Origin: a virus
Taxonomy: Duplodnaviria > Caudoviricetes
Direction: 5' to 3' (one strand)
Length of the DNA stretch: 61,727 nt
Virus record (IMG/VR): IMGVR_UViG_3300034102_002694
Coordinates: 1 to 61,727 of that record
Shown: piece after piece, positions 5,876 to 51,667 of the stretch
Position numbering within the stretch: position 1 is the first letter of the stretch
Layout: each line of letters begins with the position of its first letter
The notes under the pieces: model-generated
What the model saw: the letters and a program-made list of their open reading frames with translations, nothing else
The model's database searches: none
Told to the model about the DNA's origin: nothing
Made by a program: the position numbers and the translations under genes

Positions 5876-6859
5876 TTGATGAATAAGAAAATTATTAAAG
5901 TAATTCAAAGAGATAAATCTTTGATGAATTTAACTTGGGTAGTTAATAATATATGTAATAATAAATGTTCATACTGCGTACCAGATTTAAATAGTGGTAT
6001 GGGACACCACTATACTTGGGAAAACGCACAAAAATTTTTAGAAAAATTATTTGAAAAGTATCCAAAAATTCATTGTTCAGTAAGTGGAGGTGAACCAAGT
6101 ATTAGTCCTTTTTTGCCAGATTTGGTGAAAATGTTCAATTCTTCGGGCAATACTATAGGTACAACCAGTAATGCATTTAAACCAATAGAATATTGGGAAG
6201 ACATCTCAAAATATTTGTATTATATTTGTTTTTCGTATCATCCAGAGTTCCCTGTTAAAAACTTTAGAGAAAAAGTAATTGCTGCCAGTTTGAATACTTA
6301 TGTAACTGTAAGAGTGATGATGCTTCCATCTAAGTGGGAACACTGTGTAGAAGTATTCAATTCTTTAAAAGATATTGATACTCTTCTTATAGAACCTGTT
6401 AGAATTTTAGATTGGGGTGGTAAAAATAGAGAAGCCCATGTTTACACCAAAGAACAATTAGATTGGTTTGAACGTGAAGAAATTATGGAAGCACATAATA
6501 AAATGATATCCCATTTAATGGAAAGGGGAGAATCAGTGGAACTACAATCCACATTTATACTTGATGATGGATCTATTTTATCTGGTAAAAATGCAAATCC
6601 CGTACAATTTATTAATTACGGTATGACCAATTTTGAAGGATATGTTTGTGAAATTGGATTAAAAAGTTTATTTGTACATTATGATGGAAAAATACAATTA
6701 GGAAACTGTATGGTTGGTGGGATTATTGGAGAAATTGAAGACTTTGAAAATATTAAGTGGCCAACTTATCCTGTTATCTGCAACAAAACCTTATGTCATT
6801 GTGCCACTGACGTTAATATTAGTAAATGGGCAATAAATTATACTGAATACATACAATGA
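5876..6859 (+). CDS. Radical SAM protein with C-terminal SPASM/twitch-like Cys cluster
   Basis: CNNKCSYC (CxxxCxxC), SGGEP, C-term C..G..SL...G....C and CNKTLCHC. Confidence 0.9.
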   Translation: MMNKKIIKVIQRDKSLMNLTWVVNNICNNKCSYCVPDLNSGMGHHYTWENAQKFLEKLFEKYPKIHCSVSGGEPSISPFLPDLVKMFNSSGNTIGTTSNAFKPIEYWEDISKYLYYICFSYHPEFPVKNFREKVIAASLNTYVTVRVMMLPSKWEHCVEVFNSLKDIDTLLIEPVRILDWGGKNREAHVYTKEQLDWFEREEIMEAHNKMISHLMERGESVELQSTFILDDGSILSGKNANPVQFINYGMTNFEGYVCEIGLKSLFVHYDGKIQLGNCMVGGIIGEIEDFENIKWPTYPVICNKTLCHCATDVNISKWAINYTEYIQ

Positions 6860-8779: not shown

Positions 8780-8787
8780 TATAAATA
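8780..8787 (+). promoter_or_regulatory. T4 late promoter TATAAATA
   Basis: Perfect consensus about 30 nt upstream of the tail-collar gene at 8819. Confidence 0.8.
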
Positions 8788-8818
8788 TTCTAAACGCAGG
8801 TAATAGTTTGGTATACTT

Positions 8819-9397
8819 ATGGCTACATTGACATCCAGTGGAATAAGATTTGCAAGTACTCCAGTAGTAGATGAATTAAATTCAAAGAGAGGAATTTTTC
8901 CTACTGGCACTGCTTGGGTTTTTTATCAAGGTTCTGCTCCTACTGGGTGGACTAAAGATACAAGTCTAACAATTAATGATAAAGCACTTAGAGTTGTAAG
9001 TGGAACTGGTGGTGTTTATGGGGGAACAAATGGTTTTTCTGTAATTATGAATGGATTTAATGTTGGTGGTGGATCACTAACAAGTTCAAATGCTACAGGA
9101 GGAACTCAATTATCACTTCCGCAAATTGCTTCTCACGACCATCCGAATAGTGGTACTGGGTTGAATGCAGTTCCAACATTAAACAATCCGGATGGAGCCT
9201 TTACTGGATGGAATGGTGGTGATGTAGCTAGAAGTTCTGGTTGGACTCGAACTTCTCCTGGGTTTGGGGATGCTGGAACTGCACCAGTTGGTGATAATCA
9301 CATACACCCTTTTAGTGGAACTGCACCAGTTCCCACTCAAAACGTATCTATGCAACCTACTTACATGGATGTTATCGTCTGTACTTTCGATGGATAA
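8819..9397 (+). CDS. Tail-collar/short-fibre-like virion protein, paralog 1
   Basis: FYQGSAPTGWTK...KALRVVSGTGG, SHDH/HIH metal-binding fibre motifs, Y.DVI.C C-term. Confidence 0.7.
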   Translation: MATLTSSGIRFASTPVVDELNSKRGIFPTGTAWVFYQGSAPTGWTKDTSLTINDKALRVVSGTGGVYGGTNGFSVIMNGFNVGGGSLTSSNATGGTQLSLPQIASHDHPNSGTGLNAVPTLNNPDGAFTGWNGGDVARSSGWTRTSPGFGDAGTAPVGDNHIHPFSGTAPVPTQNVSMQPTYMDVIVCTFDG

Positions 9398-9434
9398 ATA
9401 CTTTAAATAACATCTGTAGTTTACATCATATAAA

Positions 9435-9956
9435 ATGGCTAAATTAACAGCGTCGGGAATAGTTTTCAGTGATTCTACAATTTTAAATTCGAAATACGGA
9501 ATTGTTCCACAAAACTCAGTATCAATATTTTATCAAGCCTCTGCTCCTACTGGCTGGACTAAAGATACAACTCATAATGACAAAACACTCAGAGTAGTTA
9601 ATGGAACCGGAGGAGTTTCTGGAGGAACTCAACCATTTACTACTGTGTTTCCCAACTCTGTTAGAACATTTTCATCTCCAAATATTCCTGTGACAGGAAC
9701 TGTGGGTAACACTACACTGACAACTGCTCAGTTACCAAGTCACACACACCCTAATGGTGGTTCTGTTGGATTAACTCCAGGTGGAGGTGATGTTGCTTTT
9801 GGAGCTGGATGGACTAGAACTTCCCCACTTACTGGTAGTGGACCTGCTCTTGGGGGTGGATCTCATGCACATCCTTGGTCTGGTACAGCCCAATGGTTTC
9901 TAGATGTGGATCTTAGAATTCAATATATAGATGTTATTCTTTGTAGTTTTGCTTAA
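9435..9956 (+). CDS. Tail-collar/short-fibre-like virion protein, paralog 2
   Basis: FYQASAPTGWTK, TLTTAQLPSHTH, SHAH, YIDVILC; ATAAATA at 9394-9400 upstream. Confidence 0.7.
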   Translation: MAKLTASGIVFSDSTILNSKYGIVPQNSVSIFYQASAPTGWTKDTTHNDKTLRVVNGTGGVSGGTQPFTTVFPNSVRTFSSPNIPVTGTVGNTTLTTAQLPSHTHPNGGSVGLTPGGGDVAFGAGWTRTSPLTGSGPALGGGSHAHPWSGTAQWFLDVDLRIQYIDVILCSFA

Positions 9957-9991
9957 TTTGTGGTAGAATATGTAAAAATATTTTTGATTAT

Positions 9992-10336
9992 ATGAAAAAA
10001 AACGAATCTGGTAATTTTTGTCCTCTTATTAAAAAAGATTGTGTAGAACATAAGTGTTCATGGTATACACATGTAAGAGGTATGAATCCAAATACAGGAC
10101 AAGATGTAGATCATTGGTCGTGTGCTGTAACTTGGATGCCCATGTTAACAATTGAAAATTCTCAACAACAAAGGCAAACTGGTTCCGCTGTGGAGTCATT
10201 TAGAAATGAAGTCGTTAAATCCAATGATGAGAATAGACAACTATATATTGATATGATTCAACAAAATGGTATATTGCCAGTAAATATAACTTCTTTGACT
10301 AGTACACATACCTTACCCGAAAATTCAGGAGAATAA
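9992..10336 (+). CDS. Conserved phage Cys-rich protein next to the tail-collar genes
   Basis: CPLIKKDCVEHKCSWY...CAV.W.P.L.IENS...AVESFRNE. Confidence 0.65.
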   Translation: MKKNESGNFCPLIKKDCVEHKCSWYTHVRGMNPNTGQDVDHWSCAVTWMPMLTIENSQQQRQTGSAVESFRNEVVKSNDENRQLYIDMIQQNGILPVNITSLTSTHTLPENSGE

Positions 10337-10339
10337 ATC

Positions 10340-10852
10340 ATGAGATTAACGATCATTCCATCAGACGGTTCCGTTTATATGGATGGATCTGGGTACACCA
10401 ACATAGATCTAACTTGGATTCCTAAAATTGATGGAAAAAAAGTTCATGCAGTTCAATGGTTCGATGGTGAAGGTGAAATTGAGTTTGTTGGTCCTGATCA
10501 AAATTTAAAAATTAATGAATTGGGTGCATTTGAAAAAGCAGTTGATTTGTGGAATGAAAGAAAAGAAGAGGAAGATATTCTTCGTCAACAACAATTAGAA
10601 GATGAGGAAAGACGTAGAAAACAAGAAGAAGAACGTGTAAAATCTCAGTTTCTTTCCTTTGATGAGGATGAACTTGGATTGGATATTGATAATTTTGATG
10701 ATCTTGTTGATGGGATCCCAAAAGCATATATTCCTCCTACATCAACACATATGCCTCCTGTAGAGCCTTTAATGTCAACGGAGAAAGTTGAAGAAGATGA
10801 GGAAGATGAAGATCTATTCTACGATATTGAAGAACTTTTAAAAGAAATTTGA
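10340..10852 (+). CDS. Tail-fibre-assembly-like hypothetical protein
   Basis: MRLTIIPSDG...VHAVQW...GEIEF, acidic tail; position after the fibre genes. Confidence 0.5.
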   Translation: MRLTIIPSDGSVYMDGSGYTNIDLTWIPKIDGKKVHAVQWFDGEGEIEFVGPDQNLKINELGAFEKAVDLWNERKEEEDILRQQQLEDEERRRKQEEERVKSQFLSFDEDELGLDIDNFDDLVDGIPKAYIPPTSTHMPPVEPLMSTEKVEEDEEDEDLFYDIEELLKEI

Positions 10853-10866
10853 GTTTATATTGTTAA

Positions 10867-12036
10867 ATGAATAAAAAATTAATTGAAAACAATTATATTG
10901 TGTTGCCAAATTTTATTTCAAAAGATAGAGCTATTAATCTTTCTTTTGAATTTTTAAATCATTGCAAAGAAAACAATTTATTGGGAGACAGTCAAGCGCC
11001 AAATTCATACTCCCATTATAATTACATTTCATTTCTGGAGTTACTTTGTGAAAAAACTCCAGAAATTTCTTCTGCAATTGAAGAAACTGTTTTACCTACT
11101 TATACTTATGCCAGAGTATATAAAAACAAAAGTGAATTATTGCGTCATACCGACAGAGATGCTTGTGAAATATCTTTAACTTTACATTTGCACGGAGATT
11201 CTACTTGGCCCATATGGATTGAAACTCCATCTGGAGAACAACGTTCCGTTGATTTGAATCCAGGTGATGCTATGATCTACTTGGGAAAAACTGCTCCTCA
11301 TTGGAGAGATCTTTATGATGGTGAATATTATACCCAAGTATTTTTGCATTATGTGAGAAGTCGTGGAGATTGTTCTTATTCATATTTTGATAAAGTTAAT
11401 GAAACTACCAAACCAACTGTTGAAGAACCAGTTATTGAGAAAAAGATAGAAACAAAATCAACCTCACCCAAAAGTAAAAAATCTTTAGAAGATTATATTT
11501 TTACACTAGATAATATTGTTCCAAAAGAATTATGCGATAGAATTATAAAGGAATATCGTGAATGTAGTTTTTGGACTCCAACTAGCGTGGGGAATGGAAA
11601 TGTAGATGATCAAATTAGAAACTGCGATGTCATTAATATTTCTGAAGATACAGTACTTCAGAAAAATTTTGATGTAAGAAAGAAAATAGATGAAGATTTT
11701 TATATCTGCGCTTCAAGAGCAATAAATGAGTATAGGAAATTATTTCCCGAAGTTGCATCAGATATTGATACTGGATATGGATTACTAAGATATAAAAAGG
11801 ATCAGTTTTATATTCAACACACCGATTCATTTCAACAACAACAGAGATCAGTAAGTTGTTCTTTTCTTTTGAATGATGATTATGAAGGTGGGGAGTTTGC
11901 ATTTTTTGATAGAGAAATTGTCATAAGTGGATCAAGGGGATCTATTGTAATGTTTCCTTCTAATTTTATGTTCCCTCATGAAATTATGCCTGTAACATCT
12001 GGAACTAGATATTCAATCATTACCTGGTATGTCTAA
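10867..12036 (+). CDS. Tandem two-domain 2OG-Fe(II) oxygenase (prolyl-4-hydroxylase-like)
   Basis: Domain 1 HTDR..CEIS.T...HWR; domain 2 HTD...LND.YEGGEF...FPSN..FPH...V..G.RYSI..W. Confidence 0.9.
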   Translation: MNKKLIENNYIVLPNFISKDRAINLSFEFLNHCKENNLLGDSQAPNSYSHYNYISFLELLCEKTPEISSAIEETVLPTYTYARVYKNKSELLRHTDRDACEISLTLHLHGDSTWPIWIETPSGEQRSVDLNPGDAMIYLGKTAPHWRDLYDGEYYTQVFLHYVRSRGDCSYSYFDKVNETTKPTVEEPVIEKKIETKSTSPKSKKSLEDYIFTLDNIVPKELCDRIIKEYRECSFWTPTSVGNGNVDDQIRNCDVINISEDTVLQKNFDVRKKIDEDFYICASRAINEYRKLFPEVASDIDTGYGLLRYKKDQFYIQHTDSFQQQQRSVSCSFLLNDDYEGGEFAFFDREIVISGSRGSIVMFPSNFMFPHEIMPVTSGTRYSIITWYV

Positions 12037-12826
12037 TAAACTTGAAGGAATTCCGAGTATTTACTATCTAAATTTAGACTCCGAATTAGATAGAAGAAAA
12101 TATATGGAAAGACAATTCGAAAAGTGGAATCTCACTAATATAAGAAGGTTTTCTGGATCACAATACTTGGCAGAAAATTATGAAGATTGGAAAAGTATTT
12201 TACATTTTCCTCATAAAATTACGGGAAAAAATCACCAATTAACGGCTTCCATTACACTTTCTACTCTTGAAATGATTCGACATTGGTTAGAAACTACCAA
12301 TGAAAAACATTTAATTTTAATGGAGGATGATTATGATTTAGACTTAATTGAACACTGGCACTTCGATTGGGAATATTTAATGAACAATATCCCATATGAT
12401 TGGGACTGCATTCAGTTGGGATATGAGTCATCTCTTTTCGTTAGATTTTTTCTTCATCCTAAAGATGAAACAAGTGCATATGGACCAATTCTAATTAATA
12501 GACACTTTGCTCAAAAGTTAATTAATTTACATTATGTAAAAGAAAAGTACATGTTAATTAGAAAATACGGAGGTTATCCATACAATACTGGTTACCGAGT
12601 TGTTTCATTAGATAGTTTCATTTGTTTTTTGGGGAAGACATATCAACTTCCTTTAATAACTCAAAATCCACATTTAGATAAAGTACCAAAGAAACATCAT
12701 TTTCTTTGCAGAGATATGTATTATGATTGGTGGCAGAACAAAAGAGATAATTTTTCTTTGGAAGATTTTTTTTCTTATGGAAAGAATAATGATTATGAAA
12801 TGACTATAAAAGTAAATTCTCAATGA
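12029..12826 (+). CDS. GT25-like glycosyltransferase, paralog 1
   Basis: YYLNLD...DRR..M..QF, LILMEDD, WDCIQL, LINR..AQKL. Confidence 0.8.
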   Translation: MSNKLEGIPSIYYLNLDSELDRRKYMERQFEKWNLTNIRRFSGSQYLAENYEDWKSILHFPHKITGKNHQLTASITLSTLEMIRHWLETTNEKHLILMEDDYDLDLIEHWHFDWEYLMNNIPYDWDCIQLGYESSLFVRFFLHPKDETSAYGPILINRHFAQKLINLHYVKEKYMLIRKYGGYPYNTGYRVVSLDSFICFLGKTYQLPLITQNPHLDKVPKKHHFLCRDMYYDWWQNKRDNFSLEDFFSYGKNNDYEMTIKVNSQ

Positions 12827-13647
12827 TAATTAATTCTAAATTAGAAACTCTTCCCCCAATATACTACTTTAATTTAGATCAAAGAACAGATCGTAGAGAA
12901 TACTTAGAAAAACAGTTCTCTGAGTATGGAATAACAAATTACTATAGAATTAATTCTTCTAGATATTCAGTAGATAATTATAAAGAATGGAAATCTAAAG
13001 TAGTAATTGATAAACTTAGAACACAAGTTTGGTTTCTTGCTACTTTAATTGACAGAATGCATGGCATAATTGACTGGTATAATTCCAATGTCTCCGAAAC
13101 TTGTTTAGTAATTGAGGATGATTTTTCTCTAGAACCAGTTGAATATTGGAATTTTGATTGGAAAACTTTTGTTAGTAATTTGCCTTGTAATTGGGAATGT
13201 ATTCAACTTCATATCATTGGAGAAAAATTTGTTAGGATGAACCTGTCCAATTGGACTAGAAATAATCATTCTACTGGTTGCATACTTATTAATAGATCAT
13301 ATGCACAAAAACTAATTAAACTTCATTACATAGATAATCAATTTAAATTATATTCTAATTATGGATATAACAAAAATTGGCCAGAATATCATTATCAATC
13401 TGTAGATTTTGTTTTATATCAGATAGGAGTAACATACTCCATTCCAATCTTTACTACTAACTATAATTTCATAAGTGATGGATTCAGGAATGGAAATATA
13501 AATCATATGTCTAAAAATTGTGATATTCTGGTTTTGGATTGGTGGAAAAATAGATCTCCAAATTATACTTTAGATGATATTTTTTATCTAAATTCACTTA
13601 GAAGAAAAGAATTAACTATAGAAGTAAATCATGAATTTGAAAGATAA
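12823..13647 (+). CDS. GT25-like glycosyltransferase, paralog 2
   Basis: YYFNLDQRTDRR, LVIEDD, WECIQL, LINRSYAQKL. Confidence 0.8.
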   Translation: MIINSKLETLPPIYYFNLDQRTDRREYLEKQFSEYGITNYYRINSSRYSVDNYKEWKSKVVIDKLRTQVWFLATLIDRMHGIIDWYNSNVSETCLVIEDDFSLEPVEYWNFDWKTFVSNLPCNWECIQLHIIGEKFVRMNLSNWTRNNHSTGCILINRSYAQKLIKLHYIDNQFKLYSNYGYNKNWPEYHYQSVDFVLYQIGVTYSIPIFTTNYNFISDGFRNGNINHMSKNCDILVLDWWKNRSPNYTLDDIFYLNSLRRKELTIEVNHEFER

Positions 13648-14497
13648 ATTACGAGGTTTTCCTCCTATTATTTTAGCAACAATTGACGAGAGAAAAGATA
13701 GACATGAATATACTGAAGCTCAGTATGATTATTGGGGCATAAAAAACTATACAAAAGTTTCCGGATCTAAGTACCAACTTGCAACATATGAAGAGTGGAA
13801 AGATCTAGTTATTTTAAATCCATTTGATGAGGATTATCGAAGAAAAAATCATCACATTGCAGAAATTTCCATAACTCTTGCTCATCTAATTAATATCAAA
13901 GATTGGTTAGAAAAAACTAATGATCCGTATGTCGTCATAATGGAGGATGACTATGACCTTAGTTTTATCGAACACTGGCACTTCGATTGGGAATATTTGA
14001 TGAACAATATCCCATATGATTGGGATTGTATTCAGATGAGTTTTGAGAATGAAGAGTGTGTTCCTTGTTTTCTACATCCAATTTTACCCAAACATGATAG
14101 TGGGGGTTCTTTAATTAATAGAAGATATGCGGAAAAAATTATAAATCTTCATTATAAAGACGGTAAATTCGATCTATCGCAAAAAATTTCTAATTATAAG
14201 TGGTCAAGTAAAGGAATTGCTACTTATGAGGGATTGGGGATGCCAAACTTCACTACAGATTATTTTCTTGGACATAACGGAAAGACCTATTGTTTACCTT
14301 TGTTTTCTGTAAATCAAGATCTCGGTAGTTGGGCTCAAGACATTTGTAGAAAAGAAGAAAGAACTGATTTGGAATTTTCTTACAAAGCTTGCCAAAAATG
14401 GTGGACAGAACTTAGAGATGAGTATACTTTAAAAGAATTCTTTACTTATGGTAAGCTAAATGATAGAATAATTACACCAGAAGAATTAGATAAATGA
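13631..14497 (+). CDS. GT25-like glycosyltransferase, paralog 3
   Basis: DERKDR, VIMEDD, WDCIQM, LINRRYAEK. Confidence 0.8.
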   Translation: MNLKDKLRGFPPIILATIDERKDRHEYTEAQYDYWGIKNYTKVSGSKYQLATYEEWKDLVILNPFDEDYRRKNHHIAEISITLAHLINIKDWLEKTNDPYVVIMEDDYDLSFIEHWHFDWEYLMNNIPYDWDCIQMSFENEECVPCFLHPILPKHDSGGSLINRRYAEKIINLHYKDGKFDLSQKISNYKWSSKGIATYEGLGMPNFTTDYFLGHNGKTYCLPLFSVNQDLGSWAQDICRKEERTDLEFSYKACQKWWTELRDEYTLKEFFTYGKLNDRIITPEELDK

Positions 14498-15330
14498 ATT
14501 TAGGTAATAAACTAAAAGGTCTCCCACCTATTAGGTTACTAACTCTTGATGAACGACCGGATAGACAGAGATACGCTGAGATTCAATATGATTATTGGGA
14601 GATAAAAGATTATACTAAAGTATCCGGATCGAAATATCAATCTTCAACATACGAAGATTGGAAACATTTAGTTATTTTAAATTCACTTGATGATTACGAA
14701 AGAAAAAATAACCACCTTACGGACGTTAGTATTGCTCTTTCATATTTACTGACAATAAAGGATTGGTTAGAAACAACCAATGAAAAACATTTAATTTTAA
14801 TGGAGGATGATTACGATCTATTTTTCATTGAATATTGGCATTTTGATTGGGAATATTTGATGAATAATATTCCGTATGATTGGGACTGTATTCAAATGAG
14901 TTTCGAAAATCCGAATGCAATTCCTTGTTTTTTGCATCCTATCTTGTCTGGTCATTGTGTTGGGGCTTCTTTAATCAATAGAAGATATGCAGAAAAATTA
15001 ATGTCCATGCACTATAAAGATGGGAAATTTGATTTATCTCAAAAAATTGGTAATGATCAGTGGTCAATGACTCCCAATTTTACTGTAGATTATTTTCTTG
15101 GTCATAATGGAAAAACTTATTGTTTGCCTTTAATCTCTGTAAATCAAAACTTTGGTAGTTATGCTCAAAATATTTGCAGAAAAGAAGAAAGAACTGATCT
15201 AGAATTTTCTTACAAAGCCTGTAAAAAATGGTGGACAGAACTCAGAGATGAGTATAGTCTAGAAGATTTCTTTACCTATGGTAAACCAAATGATAGAATA
15301 ATTACACCAGAGGAATTTGAAAATGTTTGA
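14494..15330 (+). CDS. GT25-like glycosyltransferase, paralog 4
   Basis: LDERPDR, LILMEDD, WDCIQM, LINRRYAEKL. Confidence 0.8.
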   Translation: MNLGNKLKGLPPIRLLTLDERPDRQRYAEIQYDYWEIKDYTKVSGSKYQSSTYEDWKHLVILNSLDDYERKNNHLTDVSIALSYLLTIKDWLETTNEKHLILMEDDYDLFFIEYWHFDWEYLMNNIPYDWDCIQMSFENPNAIPCFLHPILSGHCVGASLINRRYAEKLMSMHYKDGKFDLSQKIGNDQWSMTPNFTVDYFLGHNGKTYCLPLISVNQNFGSYAQNICRKEERTDLEFSYKACKKWWTELRDEYSLEDFFTYGKPNDRIITPEEFENV

Positions 15331-15910
15331 GTACGTTACTGAATTTGAGAATCAAATTGCAGAGTTTTTTGGAGCTCCTTATGCGGTAGCTACTGATTCG
15401 TGTACTCATGCTCTAGAACTTTGTTTGAGGCACACTCAAGAGGATTACATTACAATTCCCACAAGGACTTATGTTTCAGTTCCGATGACTTGCATGAAAC
15501 TTAGGTTAGACTGGAGCTGGAGAGAAGAAGAGTGGAGTGATTATTATTACCTAGGATTCACAAATATCATTGATGCCGCTGTTCTGTGGGGAGAGAATAC
15601 ATATATTCCTGGCACATTCATGTGTTTAAGTTTTCAGTTTAAGAAACACTTAAATCTTGGAAGGGGTGGTGCAATCTTGTTGCAAAATAAAGAGGATTAT
15701 GATACACTTAAAAAAATGTCTTATGATGGTCGTGATCTCAGTCGTCCATGGGCTGAACAAGATATAGATACCGTAGGGTATCATTACTACATGACTCCCG
15801 AGGTGGCCAAAATTGGTATTGATTTACTAAATGAGCGGAAAAAAACTCCCGGTAAAAAATGGAGCCATAAGGATTACCCTGATTTAACACAAATGTCGGT
15901 ATTTAAATGA
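15317..15910 (+). CDS. Short DegT/DnrJ/EryC1/StrS-family PLP aminotransferase
   Basis: FE..IAEF.GAPYAVATDSCTHALEL, IIDAA, SFQFKKHL..GRGGAI, GYHYYM; only 197 aa. Confidence 0.85.
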   Translation: MKMFEYVTEFENQIAEFFGAPYAVATDSCTHALELCLRHTQEDYITIPTRTYVSVPMTCMKLRLDWSWREEEWSDYYYLGFTNIIDAAVLWGENTYIPGTFMCLSFQFKKHLNLGRGGAILLQNKEDYDTLKKMSYDGRDLSRPWAEQDIDTVGYHYYMTPEVAKIGIDLLNERKKTPGKKWSHKDYPDLTQMSVFK

Positions 15911-16407
15911 TTAGTCATATAGAACCTAACTGGGACATTGAAGATTTTTATAATCTTGATTATATTTTATCTACCCATAAAGATGAAGATTTAGTGAATC
16001 AATATTTAAACTCTGGTCATAGTAGAGAAAAACTATCTATGTATAAGTACCAGTTGCCAAATCCTATGCCTGGGTGTGTTTATGACTATATCATCCCACA
16101 GTTTACTTTTTTGGATAAAGTAGCTGCTGCCGTTAATTACTTCAAACCTGGACAATACCTTCCTCTTCATACGGATTTGTATGGTAAGTATATCGAAATA
16201 AATGATATTACATCTGAAAATGTAATACGATGTATGGTTATGTTGGAAGATAATTCACCAGGACAAATCTTACAGATTAACGATGTCGCACATTGTACAT
16301 GGAAATCCGGAGATTGTTTTTACTGGAATTATGATGAGATACATGCATTTTATAATTTCAGTATGAAAGATCGATATGCAATTCAAATTACTGGGATTTT
16401 AAAATGA
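15907..16407 (+). CDS. 2OG-Fe(II) oxygenase/cupin-fold protein
   Basis: PGQYLPLHTD ... W..G...W....H...N......R..IQITG. Confidence 0.7.
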   Translation: MISHIEPNWDIEDFYNLDYILSTHKDEDLVNQYLNSGHSREKLSMYKYQLPNPMPGCVYDYIIPQFTFLDKVAAAVNYFKPGQYLPLHTDLYGKYIEINDITSENVIRCMVMLEDNSPGQILQINDVAHCTWKSGDCFYWNYDEIHAFYNFSMKDRYAIQITGILK

Positions 16408-17366
16408 AAAGTCAAAATGAATGGGGTAAATTAAAAAAAGTAATAGTCGGAGTTGCGGACTATGCAAGAGTTCCAGAAATAGATTTAAGTGTCCGTACAA
16501 TTAACTATGCGGATAGGGAAGACGTTTCGGATGTTCCTGTTGGACTTTATCCTCAACAAGTTATAGACGAAGCAAATGAAGATCTAGAAACTTTTGTTAA
16601 GTTTTTACTAGGGGAAGGTGTAGAAGTTGTAAGACCGAAAAGAACTCCTACAGATTACTACAATTTTTGTCCAAGAGATGTAGTCTTCACCCATAAAGAT
16701 TTGACTATTGTTACTCCGATGCCATTGGAGTGCAGAAAAGATGCATGGAAGCCTTTAATTGATCGTCTAGGCACTACTATTGTTGTTCCATGTAAATATC
16801 AAGAAGACCTCTACAATGAAGATTGTGTTGGGGATAAAGATACTCTTGCACTTACAGAAGTTACTCCTGCATTTGATGCAGCAAACGTCATTCGTGCAAA
16901 TGATGATATTTTGTATCTTGTATCTAATAGTGGAAATGTTGCAGGAGCTAATTTGCTCCAAGAAATGCTTAAAGATCGTGCAAAAGTGCATCTTCTTCAG
17001 GGTGTTTATAGTTATATGCACATAGATACTACGATTGCATTTCTTCGTGAAGGATTGATGTTATTAAATCCAGAAAGAATTAAATCTGTAGATGTTCTTC
17101 CAGAACCTTTTAGAAATTGGGATGTAGTTTGGTGCCCAGAACCAGTAGATATTGGTTATTATCCAGGTTATAACCATTCTTCAGAATGGGTTAATATGAA
17201 TCTTTTTAGTGTAAATCCAAATCTAGTTGCTTTGGAAGAACATCAAGAACCAACTAGAAAAGAACTAGAAAAACATGGTATAGAGTGTGCAATGCTTCCT
17301 ATGAGACACGGAAGAACATTAAGTGGTATTTTTCATTGCGTTACATTGGATCTTGAAAGGGAATAG
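16404..17366 (+). CDS. Amidinotransferase (glycine/inosamine-phosphate amidinotransferase family)
   Basis: NEWGKLKKVIVG, CPRD, FDAAN, HID, GIFHCVTLDLER; catalytic Asp/His/Cys present. Confidence 0.92.
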   Translation: MKSQNEWGKLKKVIVGVADYARVPEIDLSVRTINYADREDVSDVPVGLYPQQVIDEANEDLETFVKFLLGEGVEVVRPKRTPTDYYNFCPRDVVFTHKDLTIVTPMPLECRKDAWKPLIDRLGTTIVVPCKYQEDLYNEDCVGDKDTLALTEVTPAFDAANVIRANDDILYLVSNSGNVAGANLLQEMLKDRAKVHLLQGVYSYMHIDTTIAFLREGLMLLNPERIKSVDVLPEPFRNWDVVWCPEPVDIGYYPGYNHSSEWVNMNLFSVNPNLVALEEHQEPTRKELEKHGIECAMLPMRHGRTLSGIFHCVTLDLERE

Positions 17367-18223
17367 TGGACTTAGAGAATAAACTCAAAGACCTTCCTAT
17401 GATCTATTATATAAATTTAGATCATAGAACGGATAGAAAAAAATGGATGGAATCCCAATTTAATCATTGGGGCATAAAAAACTATCGTAGAGTTCGTGCA
17501 TCTAAGTATCATGTTTCAAAATATGATGAGTGGAAAAATGTAGTTGTAGAGAAAGAAATTCTAGAATGTCTATCTCTAATGTCAGTTGCATTAAACAATA
17601 TAGAAACAATTATCAATTGGTATGATGAATATGTTTCCGAAACTTGTATCATCATGGAGGATGATTTATCATTAGCTAATATAAAGTATTGGAATTTTGA
17701 CTGGACTTATTTTCAAAATAATCTTCCGGAAAATTGGGAAATTATTCAACTTTATTACTGTACTACCTATCAACAAGATGGGTTATCAGTTCCTATGTTT
17801 TTACACAAAAGATATGACGCTGGTTCTGCAGCTGCATATTTAATAAATCGATCATACGCAAAAAAAGTTAAAGATTTATTATATCGTGATGGTAAGTATA
17901 GGTTGACTTTTTCAGATAATTCATATCATAGAAAGTATAGTAAAGAACATATCATACAAGATGATGTTTTGTTTGATATGGGGATCACTTATTCGGTTCC
18001 TCTTTTCAATCTCAATATCAATTTAGGTGGCGATAATCAACAAAATAATCATAAAATGTTTCCCATAGATATACTTTGTAGTAAACTAATACAAGATTGG
18101 TGGAAAAATTATCACCATAACTTCACCTTAGAAGATTTTTTTACTTATGGTAAACCACATGATCATAAAATGACCATGAAAGTAAAAATGGAAGATTTGC
18201 AAAAATTTTTAGAAAAATGTTAA
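17366..18223 (+). CDS. GT25-like glycosyltransferase, paralog 5
   Basis: YYINLDHRTDR, IIMEDD, WEIIQL, AYLINRSYAKK. Confidence 0.8.
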   Translation: MDLENKLKDLPMIYYINLDHRTDRKKWMESQFNHWGIKNYRRVRASKYHVSKYDEWKNVVVEKEILECLSLMSVALNNIETIINWYDEYVSETCIIMEDDLSLANIKYWNFDWTYFQNNLPENWEIIQLYYCTTYQQDGLSVPMFLHKRYDAGSAAAYLINRSYAKKVKDLLYRDGKYRLTFSDNSYHRKYSKEHIIQDDVLFDMGITYSVPLFNLNINLGGDNQQNNHKMFPIDILCSKLIQDWWKNYHHNFTLEDFFTYGKPHDHKMTMKVKMEDLQKFLEKC

Positions 18224-19713
18224 TATTAAGTGTTCATTTGGGACATGATTCCTCAATATGTGTCTTCGATAATGGTAGTATAGAGAAATATTTTTTACTA
18301 GAAAGATTTACAGGGAAAAAACATGATTATGATGAAAAACTAATATTAAAATTAGTTAATAGTATTTGTAGTAAATTTAATATAGATGTACTCTGTATAT
18401 CTAATTTCAATACACACGATGAGATAGTAACAGAAATTTTTGAACAATGTAAAAAATATAATCCAAATGTAAAAATAGTGATGCAATCGGATCACCATTT
18501 GAATCACGCTTCTCTTGCTTTTTATAATAGTGGTTTTGATGAGAGTCTCGTTGTTGTCGCTGATGGATCTGGATCAACAATAAAAGATAATCTAGTAGAA
18601 GTGGAAAGTGTTTTTTCATTCAATAGAGAAAAGAATGATTTAATTTATAAAAATATTGTGGAAAAATCCTCTTTTGGTGTAGGTAAATTATATGATATTG
18701 CAGCTGTATTGATTGGAAATACTCCAGATGATTGTGGAAAAGCAATGGGTCTTGCATCTTATGGGTCTTCAAATAAATTATTTCAAAATCTGTTCTTAGA
18801 GAAGAAATGGAATATAGAACCTATAAAAAAGGTAGAAGTAGATAATTATAAATTACACGCAGATTTTTGTTATGAAGTTCAACAACAAACACAAAAAGTA
18901 ATTGGTGATTTAATAGAAGATTCTATAGAGAAGACGGGAATTCAAAAGGTCTGTATTTCTGGTGGTTATGGCATGAATATCGTTGCAAATTACTATTATT
19001 TGCAACGATTTCCTGATGTGAAATTTTACTTTGAACCATTGTGTAACGATAATGGTGTAAGTATAGGTGCCGCAATGAATTCATATTTTAAATTAACAAA
19101 TAAAATTCCAAATTCGATTCAAACAACTTCTTTCCATGGATTAGATTATGAAGTTTCTCCATATAAAGGTATAACAACTACAATAAAAGGTATTGCTAAT
19201 CTATTAAATCGGGATAAATCTATTGCTGTTTATACTGGCTTTGCGGAATCGGGTCAAAGAGCTTTGGGTAACCGTTCCATATTTTTTAATCCTTTAAATC
19301 TAAATGCAAAAGATATTGTAAATCAAATCAAAAAAAGAGAGTGGTATAGACCTTTTGCTTGTGTAGTATTGGAAGAAGATGCTAATATTTACTTAGATAT
19401 GGGTAGAATTAAATCAAGTCCATTTATGACTACGTGTTTCCCAGTAAGACAGGAGTATGTTAAAATAATACCAGGAGTAACTCATGTGGATAATACATGT
19501 AGAGTTCAAACTGTTTCCAAAATAGATGGTTATTTGTACAAACTTTTGCAAGAGTTTAAAACTCTATCTGGACATGGAATACTTTTGAATACTAGTTTTA
19601 ATTTAGCGGGAAACCCTTTAGTAGAGACTCCATCAGATGCATTGAATACTCTAAATAATTCGTCCTTAGATTATCTTTGGTTTGAAGAAACACAACAATT
19701 ACTTAGTAGATAA
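18217..19713 (+). CDS. Carbamoyltransferase (NodU/CmcH/TobZ family)
   Basis: GHDSS, HHLNHA, DGSG, GKAMGLASYG, SGG..MN, ESGQRALGNRS, KREWYRPFA, HVDNTCRVQTV, LNTSFN. Confidence 0.95.
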   Translation: MLILSVHLGHDSSICVFDNGSIEKYFLLERFTGKKHDYDEKLILKLVNSICSKFNIDVLCISNFNTHDEIVTEIFEQCKKYNPNVKIVMQSDHHLNHASLAFYNSGFDESLVVVADGSGSTIKDNLVEVESVFSFNREKNDLIYKNIVEKSSFGVGKLYDIAAVLIGNTPDDCGKAMGLASYGSSNKLFQNLFLEKKWNIEPIKKVEVDNYKLHADFCYEVQQQTQKVIGDLIEDSIEKTGIQKVCISGGYGMNIVANYYYLQRFPDVKFYFEPLCNDNGVSIGAAMNSYFKLTNKIPNSIQTTSFHGLDYEVSPYKGITTTIKGIANLLNRDKSIAVYTGFAESGQRALGNRSIFFNPLNLNAKDIVNQIKKREWYRPFACVVLEEDANIYLDMGRIKSSPFMTTCFPVRQEYVKIIPGVTHVDNTCRVQTVSKIDGYLYKLLQEFKTLSGHGILLNTSFNLAGNPLVETPSDALNTLNNSSLDYLWFEETQQLLSR

Positions 19714-19917
19714 ATGGATAACAAACAATTACATGAATCTGGTCTAAACATTATACAAAACTCCGATGGATCTTATGCATTTGAATGGGATCCTAAAGAT
19801 GAGCGTTGGTCATGGTTGAATGGCTTGACAGATGAACAGATTAAGACTATTATAGAGGAATCCGTTCAAACAAAACAACTTTTAGAGAATATTTCAAATG
19901 AACTTGGACTCGAATAA
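19714..19917 (+). CDS. Hypothetical protein
   Basis: QN.DGSY..EWDP.D.RW..LN.LT. Confidence 0.6.
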   Translation: MDNKQLHESGLNIIQNSDGSYAFEWDPKDERWSWLNGLTDEQIKTIIEESVQTKQLLENISNELGLE

Positions 19918-20536
19918 GATTTGGGAAGTAATGAATGATCTTGAGATGGTAACATCTAAAGTTTGTTCTGCTCGTGAGATTGTTGATGTTGTTATAGAAT
20001 CAATTCAAAAACGTGATTATGAGAAAGCTGAATCAATGGCTGCGGCTGCATATGAGTTTCTTGGATATTATCTGAGTGAATTTGATGATAAGTTTAAAAA
20101 AGCTTGGAATGAAACTGTAGTCAAACAAAAAGAAGAGGATCCTTGTATGACTCCTTGGGGACATAGTGACCTTGAATATCTCGTGAATAAAAATAAATCT
20201 CTTTCTTGTGATGGAGACGATCCATCACAAGAGTGTCAAAGTGCTTGGACTGATTTTTGGGTAGAGAATTCTTATCCAGAAGAACATTCTGAACATTATT
20301 ATGATTATACTAGAAATGATCCTGATCGACCGAATCCTTTTGTAGATAAAGTTGTAAAATGGTCTCTTCCTGTGGAACTTGATGGTTTGACTGGAGATTA
20401 TATGGTTAATTTGCCCGATGATCTCCTAGAAATAGCAAACCTGAAAGAAGGAGATCGAATTGAATGGGTGGATCAAGGTGATGGTTCGTATCTTTTTAGT
20501 AAGGTAACACGGACACTCGAAACGGGTGAGTGTTAA
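19898..20536 (+). CDS. Hypothetical protein with C-terminal AbrB/MazE-like DNA-binding domain
   Basis: C-term DYMVNLPDDLLEIANLKEGDRIEWVDQGDGSYLFSKV. Confidence 0.6.
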   Translation: MNLDSNKIWEVMNDLEMVTSKVCSAREIVDVVIESIQKRDYEKAESMAAAAYEFLGYYLSEFDDKFKKAWNETVVKQKEEDPCMTPWGHSDLEYLVNKNKSLSCDGDDPSQECQSAWTDFWVENSYPEEHSEHYYDYTRNDPDRPNPFVDKVVKWSLPVELDGLTGDYMVNLPDDLLEIANLKEGDRIEWVDQGDGSYLFSKVTRTLETGEC

Positions 20537-23824: not shown

Positions 23825-24151
23825 ATGGGCAAACACTATCTTCTAAATCTCTTTGGATGCTCATTCGTTTTGTTAAACGATGAGCATTATCTTATGGAAC
23901 TCTTAGAACAAGCTGCAGCTGCAAGTGGTGCAACTGTATGTCAAACTATTTTTAAAAAGTTTGATCCACAGGGAGTTACCGTTTTATGTTTGTTATCTGA
24001 AAGTCACATAAGTATTCATACATGGCCAGAAGAAGGTAAAGCTGCTTGCGATGTCTATACTTGTGGAGATTGTGATCCAAAAATTGGTTGTGATATGATT
24101 ATTGAACAACTATATGCAACAAATCATACACTAAGTTATATTGAACGATAA
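23825..24151 (+). CDS. speD: S-adenosylmethionine decarboxylase proenzyme
   Basis: MGKH, F.PQGVT, LLSESHISIHTWPE (E-S autocleavage), DVYTCG. Confidence 0.93.
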   Translation: MGKHYLLNLFGCSFVLLNDEHYLMELLEQAAAASGATVCQTIFKKFDPQGVTVLCLLSESHISIHTWPEEGKAACDVYTCGDCDPKIGCDMIIEQLYATNHTLSYIER

Positions 24152-25943: not shown

Positions 25944-26123
25944 ATGTATTATCAAACTAAAGCCATCTCAAAAGATGAAACTTGGACTACATGTACAATA
26001 GTAGATACAACTGAAGACAATTATATTGTAGAATATAATGAAGATGGAAACTTCTTGACAAAAGAAATTAAACCAGAAGAACTTCAAAAATTAGATTATT
26101 CCGAACTTGAAATCAGTCAATAA
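25944..26123 (+). CDS. Hypothetical protein (59 aa)
   Basis: Read manually: MYYQTKAISKDETWTTCTIVD... Confidence 0.5.
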   Translation: MYYQTKAISKDETWTTCTIVDTTEDNYIVEYNEDGNFLTKEIKPEELQKLDYSELEISQ

Positions 26124-26124
26124 A

Positions 26125-26976
26125 ATGCCAGTTTCTATAATATCCGCATGTAAAAATAGAAAAAAACCTTTAGCCATATCTATGGCTTCATGGATGCAAT
26201 TTGATGAGGTTGATGAGATAATAGTAACCAATTGGAATTCTGATGAACCTATAGATCATTTAACTATACTAAGTAAAAAAGTAAAGATAATTAATGTAAA
26301 AAATGAACCATATTTTAATCAACCTCAACCATTAAACTTAGCCGCATCTTTAGTTAAAAGTGACTATATTTTGAAATTGGATTGCGATCATGTACTAAAT
26401 CCATATTTCAACTTTTTTGATTTTCATGATATTAAAGAAAATTCTTTTATATCTGGATCAAATAAGTTATTGGAAGGAATGGATTTTCATTTTTTACATC
26501 CCCTTTGGGGACTATTATATGTAAAGACCGAAGTTTTTAAAAAAGTCGGTGGATATAATGAAAATATGGGTAAGTACTATGCAGTAGAAGATGATGAATT
26601 GGCTGTGAGATTGATATCATATGGTCTTAATCCAATACTAATAGATAGTCAAAAATTATCCGCTTTGCATATTCCACATTCCAATAAAGATAGAGTAAAA
26701 AATTTCGAATCATTCGAGAGTATAACTAAAATTTTAAGTGAATTTGGGAAAGATTTTCTAGGAGATGATCTTTATACTTATATGTCAAAATTATGTAAAG
26801 ATAAAAATCACAATGTTTATCCTATATCTGCTAGAATGATGGAAATACTTGACTTGCAGGAGAAGAACAAATACAGTGAGAAAATAGAAATAGATGTAGA
26901 TTGGTATTCAGAACCACTCTACAAATGGGATATAACCCAAATAAACGATCAAATATATGAAGCAGTTAAGATATGA
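26125..26976 (+). CDS. GT-A glycosyltransferase (GT2/GT7-C galactosyltransferase-like), paralog A
   Basis: SIISACKNR, ILKLDCD (DxD), GGYNENM..YAVEDDE, H.PH. Confidence 0.8.
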   Translation: MPVSIISACKNRKKPLAISMASWMQFDEVDEIIVTNWNSDEPIDHLTILSKKVKIINVKNEPYFNQPQPLNLAASLVKSDYILKLDCDHVLNPYFNFFDFHDIKENSFISGSNKLLEGMDFHFLHPLWGLLYVKTEVFKKVGGYNENMGKYYAVEDDELAVRLISYGLNPILIDSQKLSALHIPHSNKDRVKNFESFESITKILSEFGKDFLGDDLYTYMSKLCKDKNHNVYPISARMMEILDLQEKNKYSEKIEIDVDWYSEPLYKWDITQINDQIYEAVKI

Positions 26977-27827
26977 GTATTTCTATAATATCTGCATGTA
27001 AAAACAGAGGTGAGGCTTTAGCCGTATCCATAAGTTCATGGATACAATTTGATGAGGTCGATGAAGTAATAGTAACAGATTGGAATTCTGATATTCCAGT
27101 AAACCACCTAACTCGATTAGATAGTAGAATTAAAATTATTACTGTTCCAAGGGAACCATATTTTAATCAACCTCAACCATTAAACTTAGCCGCATCTTTA
27201 GTTAAAAGTGACTATATTTTGAAATTGGATTCAGATACAGTTATGAATCCATATTTCAACTTTTTTGATCATCATACTATTGATGATCAATCATTTTTAA
27301 CTGGTACTGATGAATCATGGCACTTCACTAATTTAAAAGCTGATCCTAAACATGTTTACCAGAACTATAAGTATCTCAAACCTCTTTGGGGTACTTTATA
27401 CATAACAAGAGAAAATTATTTCAAAATTGGTGGATATAATGAAAACATGAATAAATTTGCAGCTTGGGAAGATACTGAAATATATGAAAGGTTATTGCTT
27501 TTAGGTTTGAATCATGTGAATATTAAATTCAATGAAAAAACCCTTTTTTCATTACCACACTTAACTAAAAAAAGAGTGGAAGAGTTCCAAGCTTATAATG
27601 AAAACAAATATTTGGAAGTAACAATTAGAGATCACATTAAAAAATATAATAATGTTGATGATGACAATGTTGTACATAAACTAATTCTAGAAAAACATAA
27701 TAGATTTAATTATAAAAAATTTAAACTAAAAGAAGATAGTAGTTATTATGTAAAACCCGTGGTAGAATGGGATATCCAACAAGTTTCTTCCCAACGTTAT
27801 ATTGCTAAAAAAATACACAATAAATAA
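26973..27827 (+). CDS. GT-A glycosyltransferase (GT2/GT7-C-like), paralog B
   Basis: SIISACKNR, DWNS, ILKLDSD, GGYNENM..FAAWEDTE..ERL. Confidence 0.8.
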   Translation: MSISIISACKNRGEALAVSISSWIQFDEVDEVIVTDWNSDIPVNHLTRLDSRIKIITVPREPYFNQPQPLNLAASLVKSDYILKLDSDTVMNPYFNFFDHHTIDDQSFLTGTDESWHFTNLKADPKHVYQNYKYLKPLWGTLYITRENYFKIGGYNENMNKFAAWEDTEIYERLLLLGLNHVNIKFNEKTLFSLPHLTKKRVEEFQAYNENKYLEVTIRDHIKKYNNVDDDNVVHKLILEKHNRFNYKKFKLKEDSSYYVKPVVEWDIQQVSSQRYIAKKIHNK

Positions 27828-28860: not shown

Positions 28861-29540
28861 TGTTTGTTCATTTAGATTATTTAAAAGAAGAAGTTGATTT
28901 ACAAGCAGAAATGATTGAAGGGACTCGGTTTTATCGGGTCCCTTCTGGTAAGTTGTATCCTTCCATCACTTCTGTCACCAGTTTTTATGGTAGACAAAAA
29001 TTTATTGACTGGCGTAAGAAAGTTGGTGAGGAAGAAGCCAATAAGATCACTAAGGTTGCTACAGATCGTGGTACTAAGTTTCATGATATTGTAGAAAAGT
29101 ATTTGTTAAATGAAGATATTGACAAATATAAACCACTTCCTGTAACAAAGTTTCTCTTCCTTGCGGCTAAACCATATCTAGATCGTATAAATAATATACA
29201 TGCTTTAGAAAAGTCACTTTATAGTGACTACTTGGGACTTGCGGGCAGAGTTGATTGCATCGCTGAGTACGAGGGAGAGCTCGCAGTTATTGACTTCAAG
29301 ACTTCAAAGAAAATAAAACCTGAAGAATGGATTGAAAACTATTTTGTCCAGGAAACAGCATATGCTTGCATGTATTATGAAATGACTGGTATTCCAGTCC
29401 AAAAATTGATTACTATTATGGTCGCTGACAATGGAGAATGCTTCGTCTATGAAAAACGCAACAAGGATCACTATATTAAACTTCTTACCAAATACATTAG
29501 AGAATACGTCACTCATAAAACAGGAACCCATGCAGAATAA
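28860..29540 (+). CDS. PD-(D/E)XK exonuclease (T4-like exonuclease A / Cas4-like)
   Basis: YPSITSV, RGT.FH, E..L...LAGRVDCI, IDFKTS, YFVQ..AY. Confidence 0.9.
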   Translation: MFVHLDYLKEEVDLQAEMIEGTRFYRVPSGKLYPSITSVTSFYGRQKFIDWRKKVGEEEANKITKVATDRGTKFHDIVEKYLLNEDIDKYKPLPVTKFLFLAAKPYLDRINNIHALEKSLYSDYLGLAGRVDCIAEYEGELAVIDFKTSKKIKPEEWIENYFVQETAYACMYYEMTGIPVQKLITIMVADNGECFVYEKRNKDHYIKLLTKYIREYVTHKTGTHAE

Positions 29541-51478: not shown

Positions 51479-51550
51479 GGGACTGTCGCCTATTGGTTAA
51501 GGCCCACTGCTTATAACGGTGTGAACAGAGTTCAATTCTCTGCAGTCCTA
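51479..51550 (+). tRNA. tRNA-Ile(UAU)
   Basis: Acceptor GGGACTG/CAGTCCT; anticodon arm CACTG-CTTATAA-CGGTG; TTCAA T-loop. Confidence 0.85.
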
Positions 51551-51561
51551 CCTAAAAACAT

Positions 51562-51644: not shown

Positions 51645-51667
51645 TTGGTATACATAGTATACTATTT

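Follow-up and report, generated by a model that had tools for sequence, protein, structure and literature searches.

What could be made by a run of oxygenases, glycosyltransferases (GTs) and aminoglycoside-type tailoring enzymes that a cyanophage carries directly behind its tail-fibre genes? This question is raised by positions 8780–19713 of a 61,727-nucleotide stretch of viral DNA (IMG/VR record IMGVR_UViG_3300034102_002694), called the window below. The window (61.7 kb) corresponds to about 29% of the genome of an uncultured T4-like cyanomyovirus and encodes psbA, thyX, phoH, gp32 and gp59, as well as baseplate and tail genes. The locus lies in a variable island, with psbA on one side and thyX and phoH on the other. 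Near-identical DNA was detected only in metagenome runs of lake water, and the region had no megablast match among 50,697 phage records.

The locus can be read as two coupled modules on the plus strand, where all features described here are situated: a tail-fibre module (8780–10852) and an array of genes for soluble enzymes (10867–19713). The array may build a hydroxylation-primed glycan bearing guanidino and carbamoyl groups on the fibre proteins of the phage. This assignment, put somewhat short of an even chance, is tentatively preferred here; remodelling of the host envelope, synthesis of a free metabolite and hypermodification of phage DNA are weighed as alternatives. The genes concerned are real and intact. 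All fourteen are under purifying selection, with ratios of non-synonymous to synonymous substitution (dN/dS) of 0.00–0.45 against three relatives, and none of their proteins contains a membrane-spanning segment (highest 19-residue hydropathy 1.44).

Enzymes of the array

Ten open reading frames (ORFs) between 10867 and 19713 overlap or abut (successive overlaps of 8, 4, 17, 4, 14, 4, 4, 1 and 7 nt), which confirms the gap-free run of genes described in an earlier note on this DNA, made by a model from the letters alone. The enzyme identities proposed in that note hold as well.

The first gene of the array (10867–12036) encodes a double Fe(II)/2-oxoglutarate (2OG) oxygenase with two double-stranded β-helix (DSBH) halves, similar to prolyl 4-hydroxylase (P4H) and PKHD. 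Its C-terminal half matches PF13640 (9e-18, 65.5 bits). The N-terminal half has no match in Pfam, and its profile retrieved only non-significant matches from the PDB, such as a Naegleria Tet-like dioxygenase (E 0.058). Without exception, 35 sequences of the double oxygenase keep H94xD96...H145/H161 and H318xD320...H371,R381, the latter set comprising the facial triad and the 2OG-binding Arg of the C-terminal half; a profile alignment brings both halves into register at HTD (hhalign E 0.0058, low probability). Weak PDB matches of the double oxygenase are all protein hydroxylases, namely PHD2, bacterial P4H, LH3 and PiuC (E 0.007–0.09). The family of the N-terminal half (phrog_2954/3531) and RefSeq records (S-T4, ACG-2014f, P-SSM2 piuC) label this oxygenase 'ferrochelatase', which looks like a spread annotation error since the HxD...H motif is invariant.

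A second, small oxygenase of the cupin/DSBH Fe(II)/2OG type is putatively encoded at 15907–16407. Its matches to PF05118 (E 7e-4) and PF13640 (E 0.059) are both below cut-off, and its profile has no significant match in the PDB. The motif H88xD90...H146 and R156 are kept in at least 90% of 51 sequences, and the protein aligns in register with the P4H-like half of the double oxygenase (hhalign E 0.032, low probability).

Five paralogous GT25-like GTs of 265–288 aa are present: GTa (12029–12826), a GT-A enzyme, GTb (12823–13647), GTc (13631–14497), GTd (14494–15330) and GTe (17366–18223, GTG start). All match phrog_2835 (1e-36 to 1e-39; GTa 3e-36, GTe 2e-39). Three reach 17.2, 15.8 and 13.5 bits against PF01755, the GT25 family (E 0.005–0.07; GTa 0.0048, GTe 0.013), where the gathering score is 24 bits, and two have no match; across the GT family, 20 of 34 members match GT25 at E<0.1 (best 5.4e-7). 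The acidic motif E99-D100-D101 (EDD) is present in all five GTs and in 130–131 of 131 family sequences. GTa and GTb form orthologue clades with one copy at each of 31 (support 0.98) and 33 loci (support 1.0), respectively, and so does GTe (14 loci); GTd, found in a subset of relatives, and GTc are a recent pair with 74% identity. Judged by these clades, the GTs represent four anciently distinct types and one recent duplicate. The sole solved relative found by the GT profile is mimivirus R655 (9crz, E 5.5e-5, N-terminal 95 positions). R655 is described as a GLT25D1-like putative collagen glycosyltransferase whose activity was untested, according to the accessible text of that 2022 paper (PMC9546862).

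The DegT-family sugar aminotransferase (15317–15910) is half-size, with 195–197 aa as against ~360–400 aa in the usual two-domain enzymes. Its start is more likely ATG 15323 than TTG 15317 because the homologues have 195 aa. The protein matches PF01041 (5.5e-17, 62.5 bits against a cut-off of 19.8) and covers positions ~34–86 and 162–245 of solved members. K110, the pyridoxal phosphate (PLP) lysine, and D86, the aspartate for the pyridine nitrogen, are kept in at least 95% of 54 sequences; in the alignment, K110 coincides with the lysine of the SFxxxK motif in 7b0m and 8vr3. The structural model is confident (pLDDT 91.5, pTM 0.89), and the top Foldseek matches are GDP-perosamine synthase, AtS13, CalS13, ArnB, BtrR and WbpE (E ~1e-8, TMq 0.58–0.76, TMt 0.32–0.42).

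The L-arginine amidinotransferase (16404–17366) aligns end to end with StrB1 (PDB 1bwd; residues 4–319 against 7–339) at E 1.3e-58, which bears out a StrB1-type call originally made by eye; other matches are HsvA (5.7e-31), SxtG (3.6e-29) and AGAT (3.5e-26). The catalytic residues D92, D158, H206 and C312 (the nucleophile) correspond to StrB1 D108, D179, H227 and C332 and are kept in at least 95% of 58 homologues. No Pfam match was obtained for this protein, including PF02274 even at E≤10, the HMM missing this branch. One pointer, the closer relationship to StrB1 than to AGAT, indicates that the acceptor could be an amino cyclitol or amino sugar. A full-length relative with 24–27% identity occurs in twelve Campylobacter phage records (CP220, CPt10 and their relatives).

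The last gene (18217–19713) encodes an O-carbamoyltransferase of the NodU/CmcH/TobZ type with both Pfam domains above cut-off (PF16861, 1.7e-52, 177.8 bits; PF02543, 5.7e-21, 75.8 bits). Its PDB matches are 7xb6 (1.1e-39) and TobZ (3.2e-36), as well as NovN and GdmN-type enzymes. H93, H97 and D116, which by their spacing may be the equivalents of the TobZ metal ligands in the Kae1-like domain, are kept by at least 95% of 21 sequences, although alignment of the N-terminal part is poor.

The fibre module and its promoters

Upstream of the array lie the genes of two paralogous stand-alone fibre-tip proteins (52% identity): TC1 (192 aa, 8819–9397) and TC2 (173 aa, 9435–9956), the latter without an NPDG-containing insertion present in TC1. 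Their earlier label, 'tail-collar', fails: the Pfam Collar family (PF07484) was matched by 0 of 29 family members at E≤1 and by none of the window proteins at E≤10. PF21939 was not matched by the family either. Instead, the family profile matches the tip domains of the solved tail fibres 9qgo (3.4e-6) and 9nxk (5e-6), and an Atlas feature match (0.95) places TC1 with Gp10_C clusters. A PTGW motif and two invariant HxH motifs (H106, H108, H161 and H163) are common to the family. Long fibre proteins of Prochlorococcus phage P-SSM2, Synechococcus phage S-B05 and Roseobacter podophage CRP-361 end in the TC domain, and a stand-alone homologue in S-SCSM1 is recorded as 'virion protein'. TC1 is the fastest-evolving gene of the stretch (dN/dS 0.20–0.45), which fits the expectation for a receptor-binding part. 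Its monomer model is poor (pLDDT 61.6, pTM 0.33).

At GT-bearing loci, the TC domain always occurs as a stand-alone protein (longer than 300 aa in 0 of 47). An NP[DNA]G insertion is found in one TC paralogue at 26 of 29 distinct GT-bearing loci, compared with 3 of 74 fibre-tip proteins from loci without GTs. The NPDG loop could be a candidate glycan acceptor and is offered as a lead only, because the loci are related.

Two small ORFs that the earlier note passed over belong with the fibre genes. The first (9992–10336) encodes a Cys-rich protein of 114 aa with no family in Pfam or PHROG, invariant C10, C17, C22 and C44, and a dN/dS of 0.00–0.05. The second (10340–10852) encodes a protein of 170 aa with a conserved N-terminal part of 50–75 aa and an acidic tail (net charge −29). 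Their surroundings were examined in 80 loci retrieved via the 9992–10336 family, the best 80 of at least 595 relatives in viral contigs; this fibre-side set is biased to close relatives of the window, and many of its loci still hold the enzyme array. A TC domain is located within 2.5 kb of the 9992–10336 homologue in 77 of the 80 loci, and the N-terminal domain of 10340–10852 within the same distance in 62. The 9992–10336 homologue stands directly 3′ of the fibre genes in P-SSM2, CRP-361, S-B05 and S-SCSM1. In CRP-361 the order is fibre, 9992-like gene, gp41, with none of the enzymes; the N-terminus of gp41, annotated as 'tail assembly chaperone protein', is matched by that of 10340–10852. The linkage of both families to fibre genes holds also in podoviruses without any of the enzymes.

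It is because of this linkage and the order in CRP-361 that 8780–10852 is read as a fibre module. The two small proteins could be assembly factors or accessory subunits that presumably bind to the fibre. A complex prediction for three copies of TC1 with the 9992–10336 protein scored 0.00, gave no verdict and was not used.

The motif TATAAATA, a T4-type late promoter motif, lies at 8780–8787, 39 nt before the ATG of TC1 and ahead of both paralogues, as had been noticed before. A second late-type motif, (G)ATAAATA, is located at 9394–9400, 41 nt before TC2. Within the window, TATAAATA is not enriched (3 copies against 7.6 expected). Of 29 distinct regions upstream of the first fibre gene in related contigs, 18 have TATAAATA and 27 have ATAAATA, located between −27 and −44; the background of ATAAATA is 0.18 per kb. 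The motif before the first fibre gene agrees with NATAAATA, which the accessible text of PMC2984593 gives as the cyanomyovirus late motif, and a gp33-like late-transcription coactivator (PF16805) is encoded at 29431–29793. By motif and position, T4-type late promoters are assigned to the two fibre-tip genes only. The fibre module would consist of two stand-alone fibre-tip proteins behind such motifs and two small assembly factors.

Before 9992 a different signal is found, the sigma-70-type extended −10 element TGGTAGAAT (9961–9969, 31 nt upstream). An element TGnTAnAAT precedes the 9992–10336 homologues by ~30 nt, mostly at −30/−31, in 21 of 34 distinct upstream regions (background of such elements 1.0 per kb). 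Loci of the type found in phage S-SCSM2R, which lack adjacent fibre-tip genes, have a full TTGACT-17-TATAAT at the same place. The promoter claims rest on positional conservation because a generic scan was not above shuffled sequences (promoter-like 60 against 76.8, terminator-like 7 against 6.0). The enzyme array is probably headed by its own host-type, presumably early, promoter, and with this conserved element the enzymes may be made early; read-through from the late promoters may occur too. The single late operon of the earlier note survives only in its fibre part, where the late motif is conserved, and gives way at the separate element before 9992. Another extended −10-like nonamer, TGATAGAAT, occurs at 14461–14469 and 15291–15299, 33 and 32 nt before the starts of GTd and DegT. 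Each copy falls within the 3′ end of GTc or GTd, where these two genes are homologous, and may be an internal promoter or a by-product of duplication.

Conservation of the gene set

Co-occurrence of the genes in relatives, a check suggested in the earlier note, was followed in 80 loci retrieved via the amidinotransferase, the best 80 of 222 relatives in viral contigs. DegT is present in 75 of them, the cupin in 73, GTs in 62, the double oxygenase in 50, fibre-tip genes in 43 and the carbamoyltransferase in 31. Upstream counts in the 55 viral loci with at least 7.5 kb of upstream sequence are 54 for DegT, 43 for GT25-like genes, 41 for the cupin, 39 for the double oxygenase and 34 for fibre-tip genes. 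The gene set does travel together, and its order is conserved in relatives. In these loci, the DegT–amidinotransferase pair is the invariant core; the carbamoyltransferase is optional, 23 of 72 loci having it no more than 2.6 kb 3′ of the amidinotransferase.

The fibre-side set gives the complementary view. Among its 36 loci with enough flanking sequence, 22 have a related 2OG oxygenase within 5 kb, 10 have GTs and 10 have DegT with the amidinotransferase, and none of the 10 GT-bearing loci lacks the oxygenase. In P-SSM2 and S-SCSM1 a 2OG oxygenase is located among the fibre genes without any GT. Gene content is nested: the fibre module comes first, then a 2OG oxygenase, then GTs together with DegT and the amidinotransferase. 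Decoration of virion proteins, one of the targets offered in the earlier note, gains independent support from this pattern, as it was obtained through a fibre gene, with the reservation that the retrieval favours close relatives.

Distant viral DegT–amidinotransferase cores sit with genes for UDP-glucose/GDP-mannose-dehydrogenase-like proteins, short-chain dehydrogenase/reductase (SDR) epimerase, radical S-adenosylmethionine (SAM) enzymes, sulfotransferase, GT47 and carbamoyltransferases. The half-size DegT is also present in 35 cellular loci, the annotated ones near a dehydrogenase-like gene, epimerases, radical SAM enzymes and a polysaccharide lyase; its pairing with an amidinotransferase is restricted there to Bdellovibrio-like and Legionellales genomes. 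Such nucleotide-sugar-type neighbours in distant viral and cellular loci argue for sugar rather than cyclitol chemistry. The cyclitol (streptidine/bluensidine) substrate of the earlier note finds no support among them, and it was dropped as a candidate, no inositol-pathway genes having been seen either.

The cellular hosts of the half-size DegT are Marinimicrobia, Bdellovibrio, Legionellales, Chitinophagaceae and Pelagibacteraceae. The gene regularly adjoins a divergent UDP-glucose/GDP-mannose-dehydrogenase-like gene and several radical SAM genes of 420–480 aa, which together look like a separate, so far uncharacterised cassette for sugar modification. Four 'Prochlorococcus' single-cell contigs with the half-size DegT (L173, L176, L177 and L182) may be phage DNA from infected cells.

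The closest cultured counterpart is ORF299–310 of S-SCSM2R (PQ898602), where homologues of 9992 and 10340, the double oxygenase, GT25-like GTs, DegT, the cupin, the amidinotransferase and a further GT follow in the same order. Identity with the window is 67% for the half-size DegT and 70.8% for the amidinotransferase. Unlike the window, S-SCSM2R has a radical SAM gene inside the array, no carbamoyltransferase in it, no adjacent fibre-tip genes and a full −35/−10 promoter upstream. In the accessible text of the original description (BMC Biol 2025, PMC12801897), three genes of the array are called 'antibiotic synthesis genes' and the GTs cell-wall genes, with no function tested.

A second cluster of S-SCSM2R (188955–203351) begins with two fibre-tip genes, a P4H-like ORF234 and a COG2192 carbamoyltransferase (ORF235) and continues with epimerases, GT10, an NAD-synthase-like gene, UGDH and five GTs; a COG3306 (GT25) gene is present too. 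ORF234 is labelled as a baseplate protein, and ORF235 as a 2OG oxygenase, yet the latter is 49% identical to the carbamoyltransferase of the window. An Rfam wcaG RNA is annotated between these two ORFs. In the window, Rfam at the gathering threshold gave four tRNAs only, and a wcaG-type RNA was not found.

A radical SAM protein (5876–6859; PF04055, 6.4e-10) is possibly associated with the locus as a non-core component; its profile search gave generic weak matches only. With any position and weak minus-strand matches included, 29 of 80 loci have a homologue 5′ of the fibre genes, and some relatives have a different radical SAM gene within the array, beside DegT. Just downstream of the array, in relatives with or without the carbamoyltransferase, a gene for a very acidic protein is conserved (19898–20536; 212 aa, net charge −25), which has a C-terminal AbrB/MazE-like SpoVT motif (PF04014, E 0.0014, below cut-off).

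Product, target and meaning of the pathway

The product of the array could be a short O-linked glycan on a structural protein of the phage, the likeliest acceptor being the NPDG-bearing fibre-tip protein. In the first step, an acceptor residue would be hydroxylated by the double P4H-like oxygenase. Each of the four GT25-like transferases and the one duplicate could then attach a single sugar, with host UDP-sugars as donors. The small cupin oxygenase (in relatives, a radical SAM enzyme) could introduce a keto group into one of the sugars, which the half-size DegT would convert to an amine. The StrB1-type enzyme would transfer the amidino group of L-arginine to this amine, giving a guanidino sugar, and a hydroxyl could be O-carbamoylated by the TobZ-like enzyme with carbamoyl phosphate and ATP. 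Formation of the keto group and the three subsequent reactions are equally possible on a nucleoside diphosphate (NDP) sugar before transfer. What results would be a capped glycan with positive charge, placed where the virion binds its receptor. These steps are derived from the chemistry of the enzyme families, the catalytic residues of which are present and intact. Hydroxylysine was considered as the acceptor residue and dropped as unlikely because the fibre-tip proteins contain only 1.6–2.3% Lys.

A more specific version appears doubtful: the phage would hydroxylate its own receptor-binding fibre-tip loop and build on it a four- to five-sugar O-glycan with a guanidino sugar and a carbamoyl cap, thereby tuning adsorption to the anionic cyanobacterial surface.

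Several observations weigh against a glycan on the fibre. The enzyme array of S-SCSM2R is ~40 kb away from the fibre-tip genes of that phage, and in S-T4 and ACG-2014f the double oxygenase stands away from fibre genes. The double oxygenase occurs in 173 and single GT25-like genes in 98 phage records, the GTs mostly without this context. GT25 membership is below the Pfam cut-off in all five window GTs. The half-size DegT is without the C-terminal domain and ~50 residues of the large domain; its activity is assumed. Having its own sigma-70-type element, the array is possibly expressed early, apart from the late fibre genes. Both the nesting and the NPDG correlation were drawn from contigs related to one another and are therefore not phylogenetically independent. 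NDP-sugar dehydratase and nucleotidyltransferase genes were not found in the window, nor was any PF01370 match; as the window is ~29% of the genome, their absence cannot be claimed for the phage.

Remodelling of the host envelope is unlikely and is the best placed of the alternatives. The enzymes would alter the lipopolysaccharide (LPS) core, the O-antigen or another surface polysaccharide of the host, for example to block superinfection, and the fibre genes would be mere neighbours in a hypervariable island. GT25 is named for lipooligosaccharide/LPS enzymes (PF01755 description), the host-type element of the array suggests early expression, in cells the half-size DegT belongs to clusters of a polysaccharide type, and the S-SCSM2R array is not beside fibre-tip genes. 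Published readings of cyanophage GT clusters, in the accessible texts, also prefer surface-polysaccharide modification (PMC7824862, PMC12801897). However, the cluster contains no membrane protein, flippase, polymerase, lipid-carrier transferase or exporter, and adjacency to the fibre module recurs. LPS synthesis needs no P4H-like oxygenase, yet GTs without one were found at 0 of the 10 GT-bearing fibre-side loci, and the second cluster of S-SCSM2R again unites fibre-tip genes with P4H, carbamoyltransferase and GT.

A free metabolite, i.e., a soluble aminoglycoside-like pseudo-oligosaccharide with guanidino and carbamoyl groups acting on the host or its competitors, seems distinctly improbable. 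It is suggested by the nearest characterised relatives of three enzymes, which belong to antibiotic pathways (StrB1; TobZ/NovN/GdmN; BtrR/AtS13/CalS13), by the solubility of all array proteins and, in the accessible literature, by the 'antibiotic synthesis genes' of the S-SCSM2R authors (PMC12801897; PMC7824862). Against it, genes for a cyclitol synthase, an inositol dehydrogenase, a kinase, resistance or an exporter were not seen, and the oxygenase resembles P4H, a type that hydroxylates proteins. The linkage of the array with the fibre module also speaks against it, and a small molecule would seem to call for fewer than four ancient GT types.

Hypermodification of phage DNA, in which the oxygenase would hydroxylate a base and the GTs and tailoring enzymes would build a modified sugar on it, is very improbable: phage glucosyltransferase labels in phrog_2835, the Tet-like match of the N-terminal oxygenase half and a Mom-family protein elsewhere in the window speak for it, but that match is non-significant and no Tet_JBP Pfam match was obtained, the array has no hydroxymethylase, DNA-binding domain or base-flipping enzyme, ThyX is present, and five GTs with three tailoring enzymes exceed any DNA sugar modification known to us.

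The Mom-family protein itself (51936–52547; PF25680, 2.5e-22; phrog_1384) is encoded just after tRNAs Ile-tat, Leu-taa and Thr-tgt (51479–51739) and suggests adenine modification of the carbamoylmethyl type in the cyanophage of the window. In the accessible text on S-SCSM2R, mom is called new for cyanophages (PMC12801897). Two overlapping GTs of another family (26107–26976 and 26973–27827; GT2/Glyco_transf_7C, E 1e-5 to 1e-6) lie between thyX and phoH. S-adenosylmethionine decarboxylase SpeD (23825–24151; PF02675, 4.7e-34) is an auxiliary polyamine gene unrelated to the array.

The preferred product, a tailored glycan on the fibre, would combine three known kinds of system: virus-encoded virion glycosylation, hydroxylation-primed O-glycosylation and aminoglycoside-type tailoring. 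Virus-encoded virion glycosylation is represented by the capsid and tail-tube glycans of mycobacteriophages and by those of chloroviruses and mimivirus, made by the viruses' own GTs, with genes beside structural genes. We know of no hydroxylase priming and no guanidino or carbamoyl sugar in these systems. Collagen-type O-glycosylation (human LH3 with GLT25D1; mimivirus L230/R655/R699) likewise combines a 2OG hydroxylase with a GT25-type GT-A enzyme and is directed to a structural protein, a viral one in mimivirus; unlike there, no collagen repeats were seen in the window and the oxygenase is closer to prolyl hydroxylases, whereas the collagen-type systems have no sugar tailoring.

In the streptidine/bluensidine pathway, a StsC-type DegT aminotransferase is followed by the StrB1 amidinotransferase. 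This branch, together with TobZ-type O-carbamoylation, has the same sequence of ketone, amine and guanidine plus O-carbamoylation as proposed here. The window differs in that no cyclitol genes were seen, DegT is half-size and the context is viral, with GTs, protein-hydroxylase-like oxygenases and fibre genes.

A literature search on guanidino sugars, amidinotransferases, virion glycosylation and prolyl hydroxylases in phages and cyanophages found no phage guanidino-sugar system, and only PMC12801897 was relevant. The earlier statement that no characterised phage system has this enzyme set holds, although the genes themselves had already been annotated in S-SCSM2R. New here are the division into a fibre and an enzyme module, the assignment of 9992–10852 to the fibre, the second promoter, the nested pattern obtained via a fibre gene and the candidate acceptor loop.

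The module is common: viral contigs yielded 222 relatives of the amidinotransferase and at least 595 of the fibre-linked gene, and since the carrier S-SCSM2R is in culture, the question is directly testable. Should the target be the host envelope or a metabolite, the array would be a widespread auxiliary pathway of cyanophages with antibiotic-type chemistry. A glycan on the fibre would include, if true, the first guanidino sugar in any glycoconjugate and be the first hydroxylation-primed protein glycosylation in a phage, and the half-size aminotransferase with the StrB1-like amidinotransferase would form a new enzymatic route to guanidino sugars. Aquatic phages would then chemically alter the organelle by which they recognise their hosts, using a cationic sugar so far unknown in glycans, and this would add a layer of host range that is invisible to sequence-based prediction of receptor-binding proteins.

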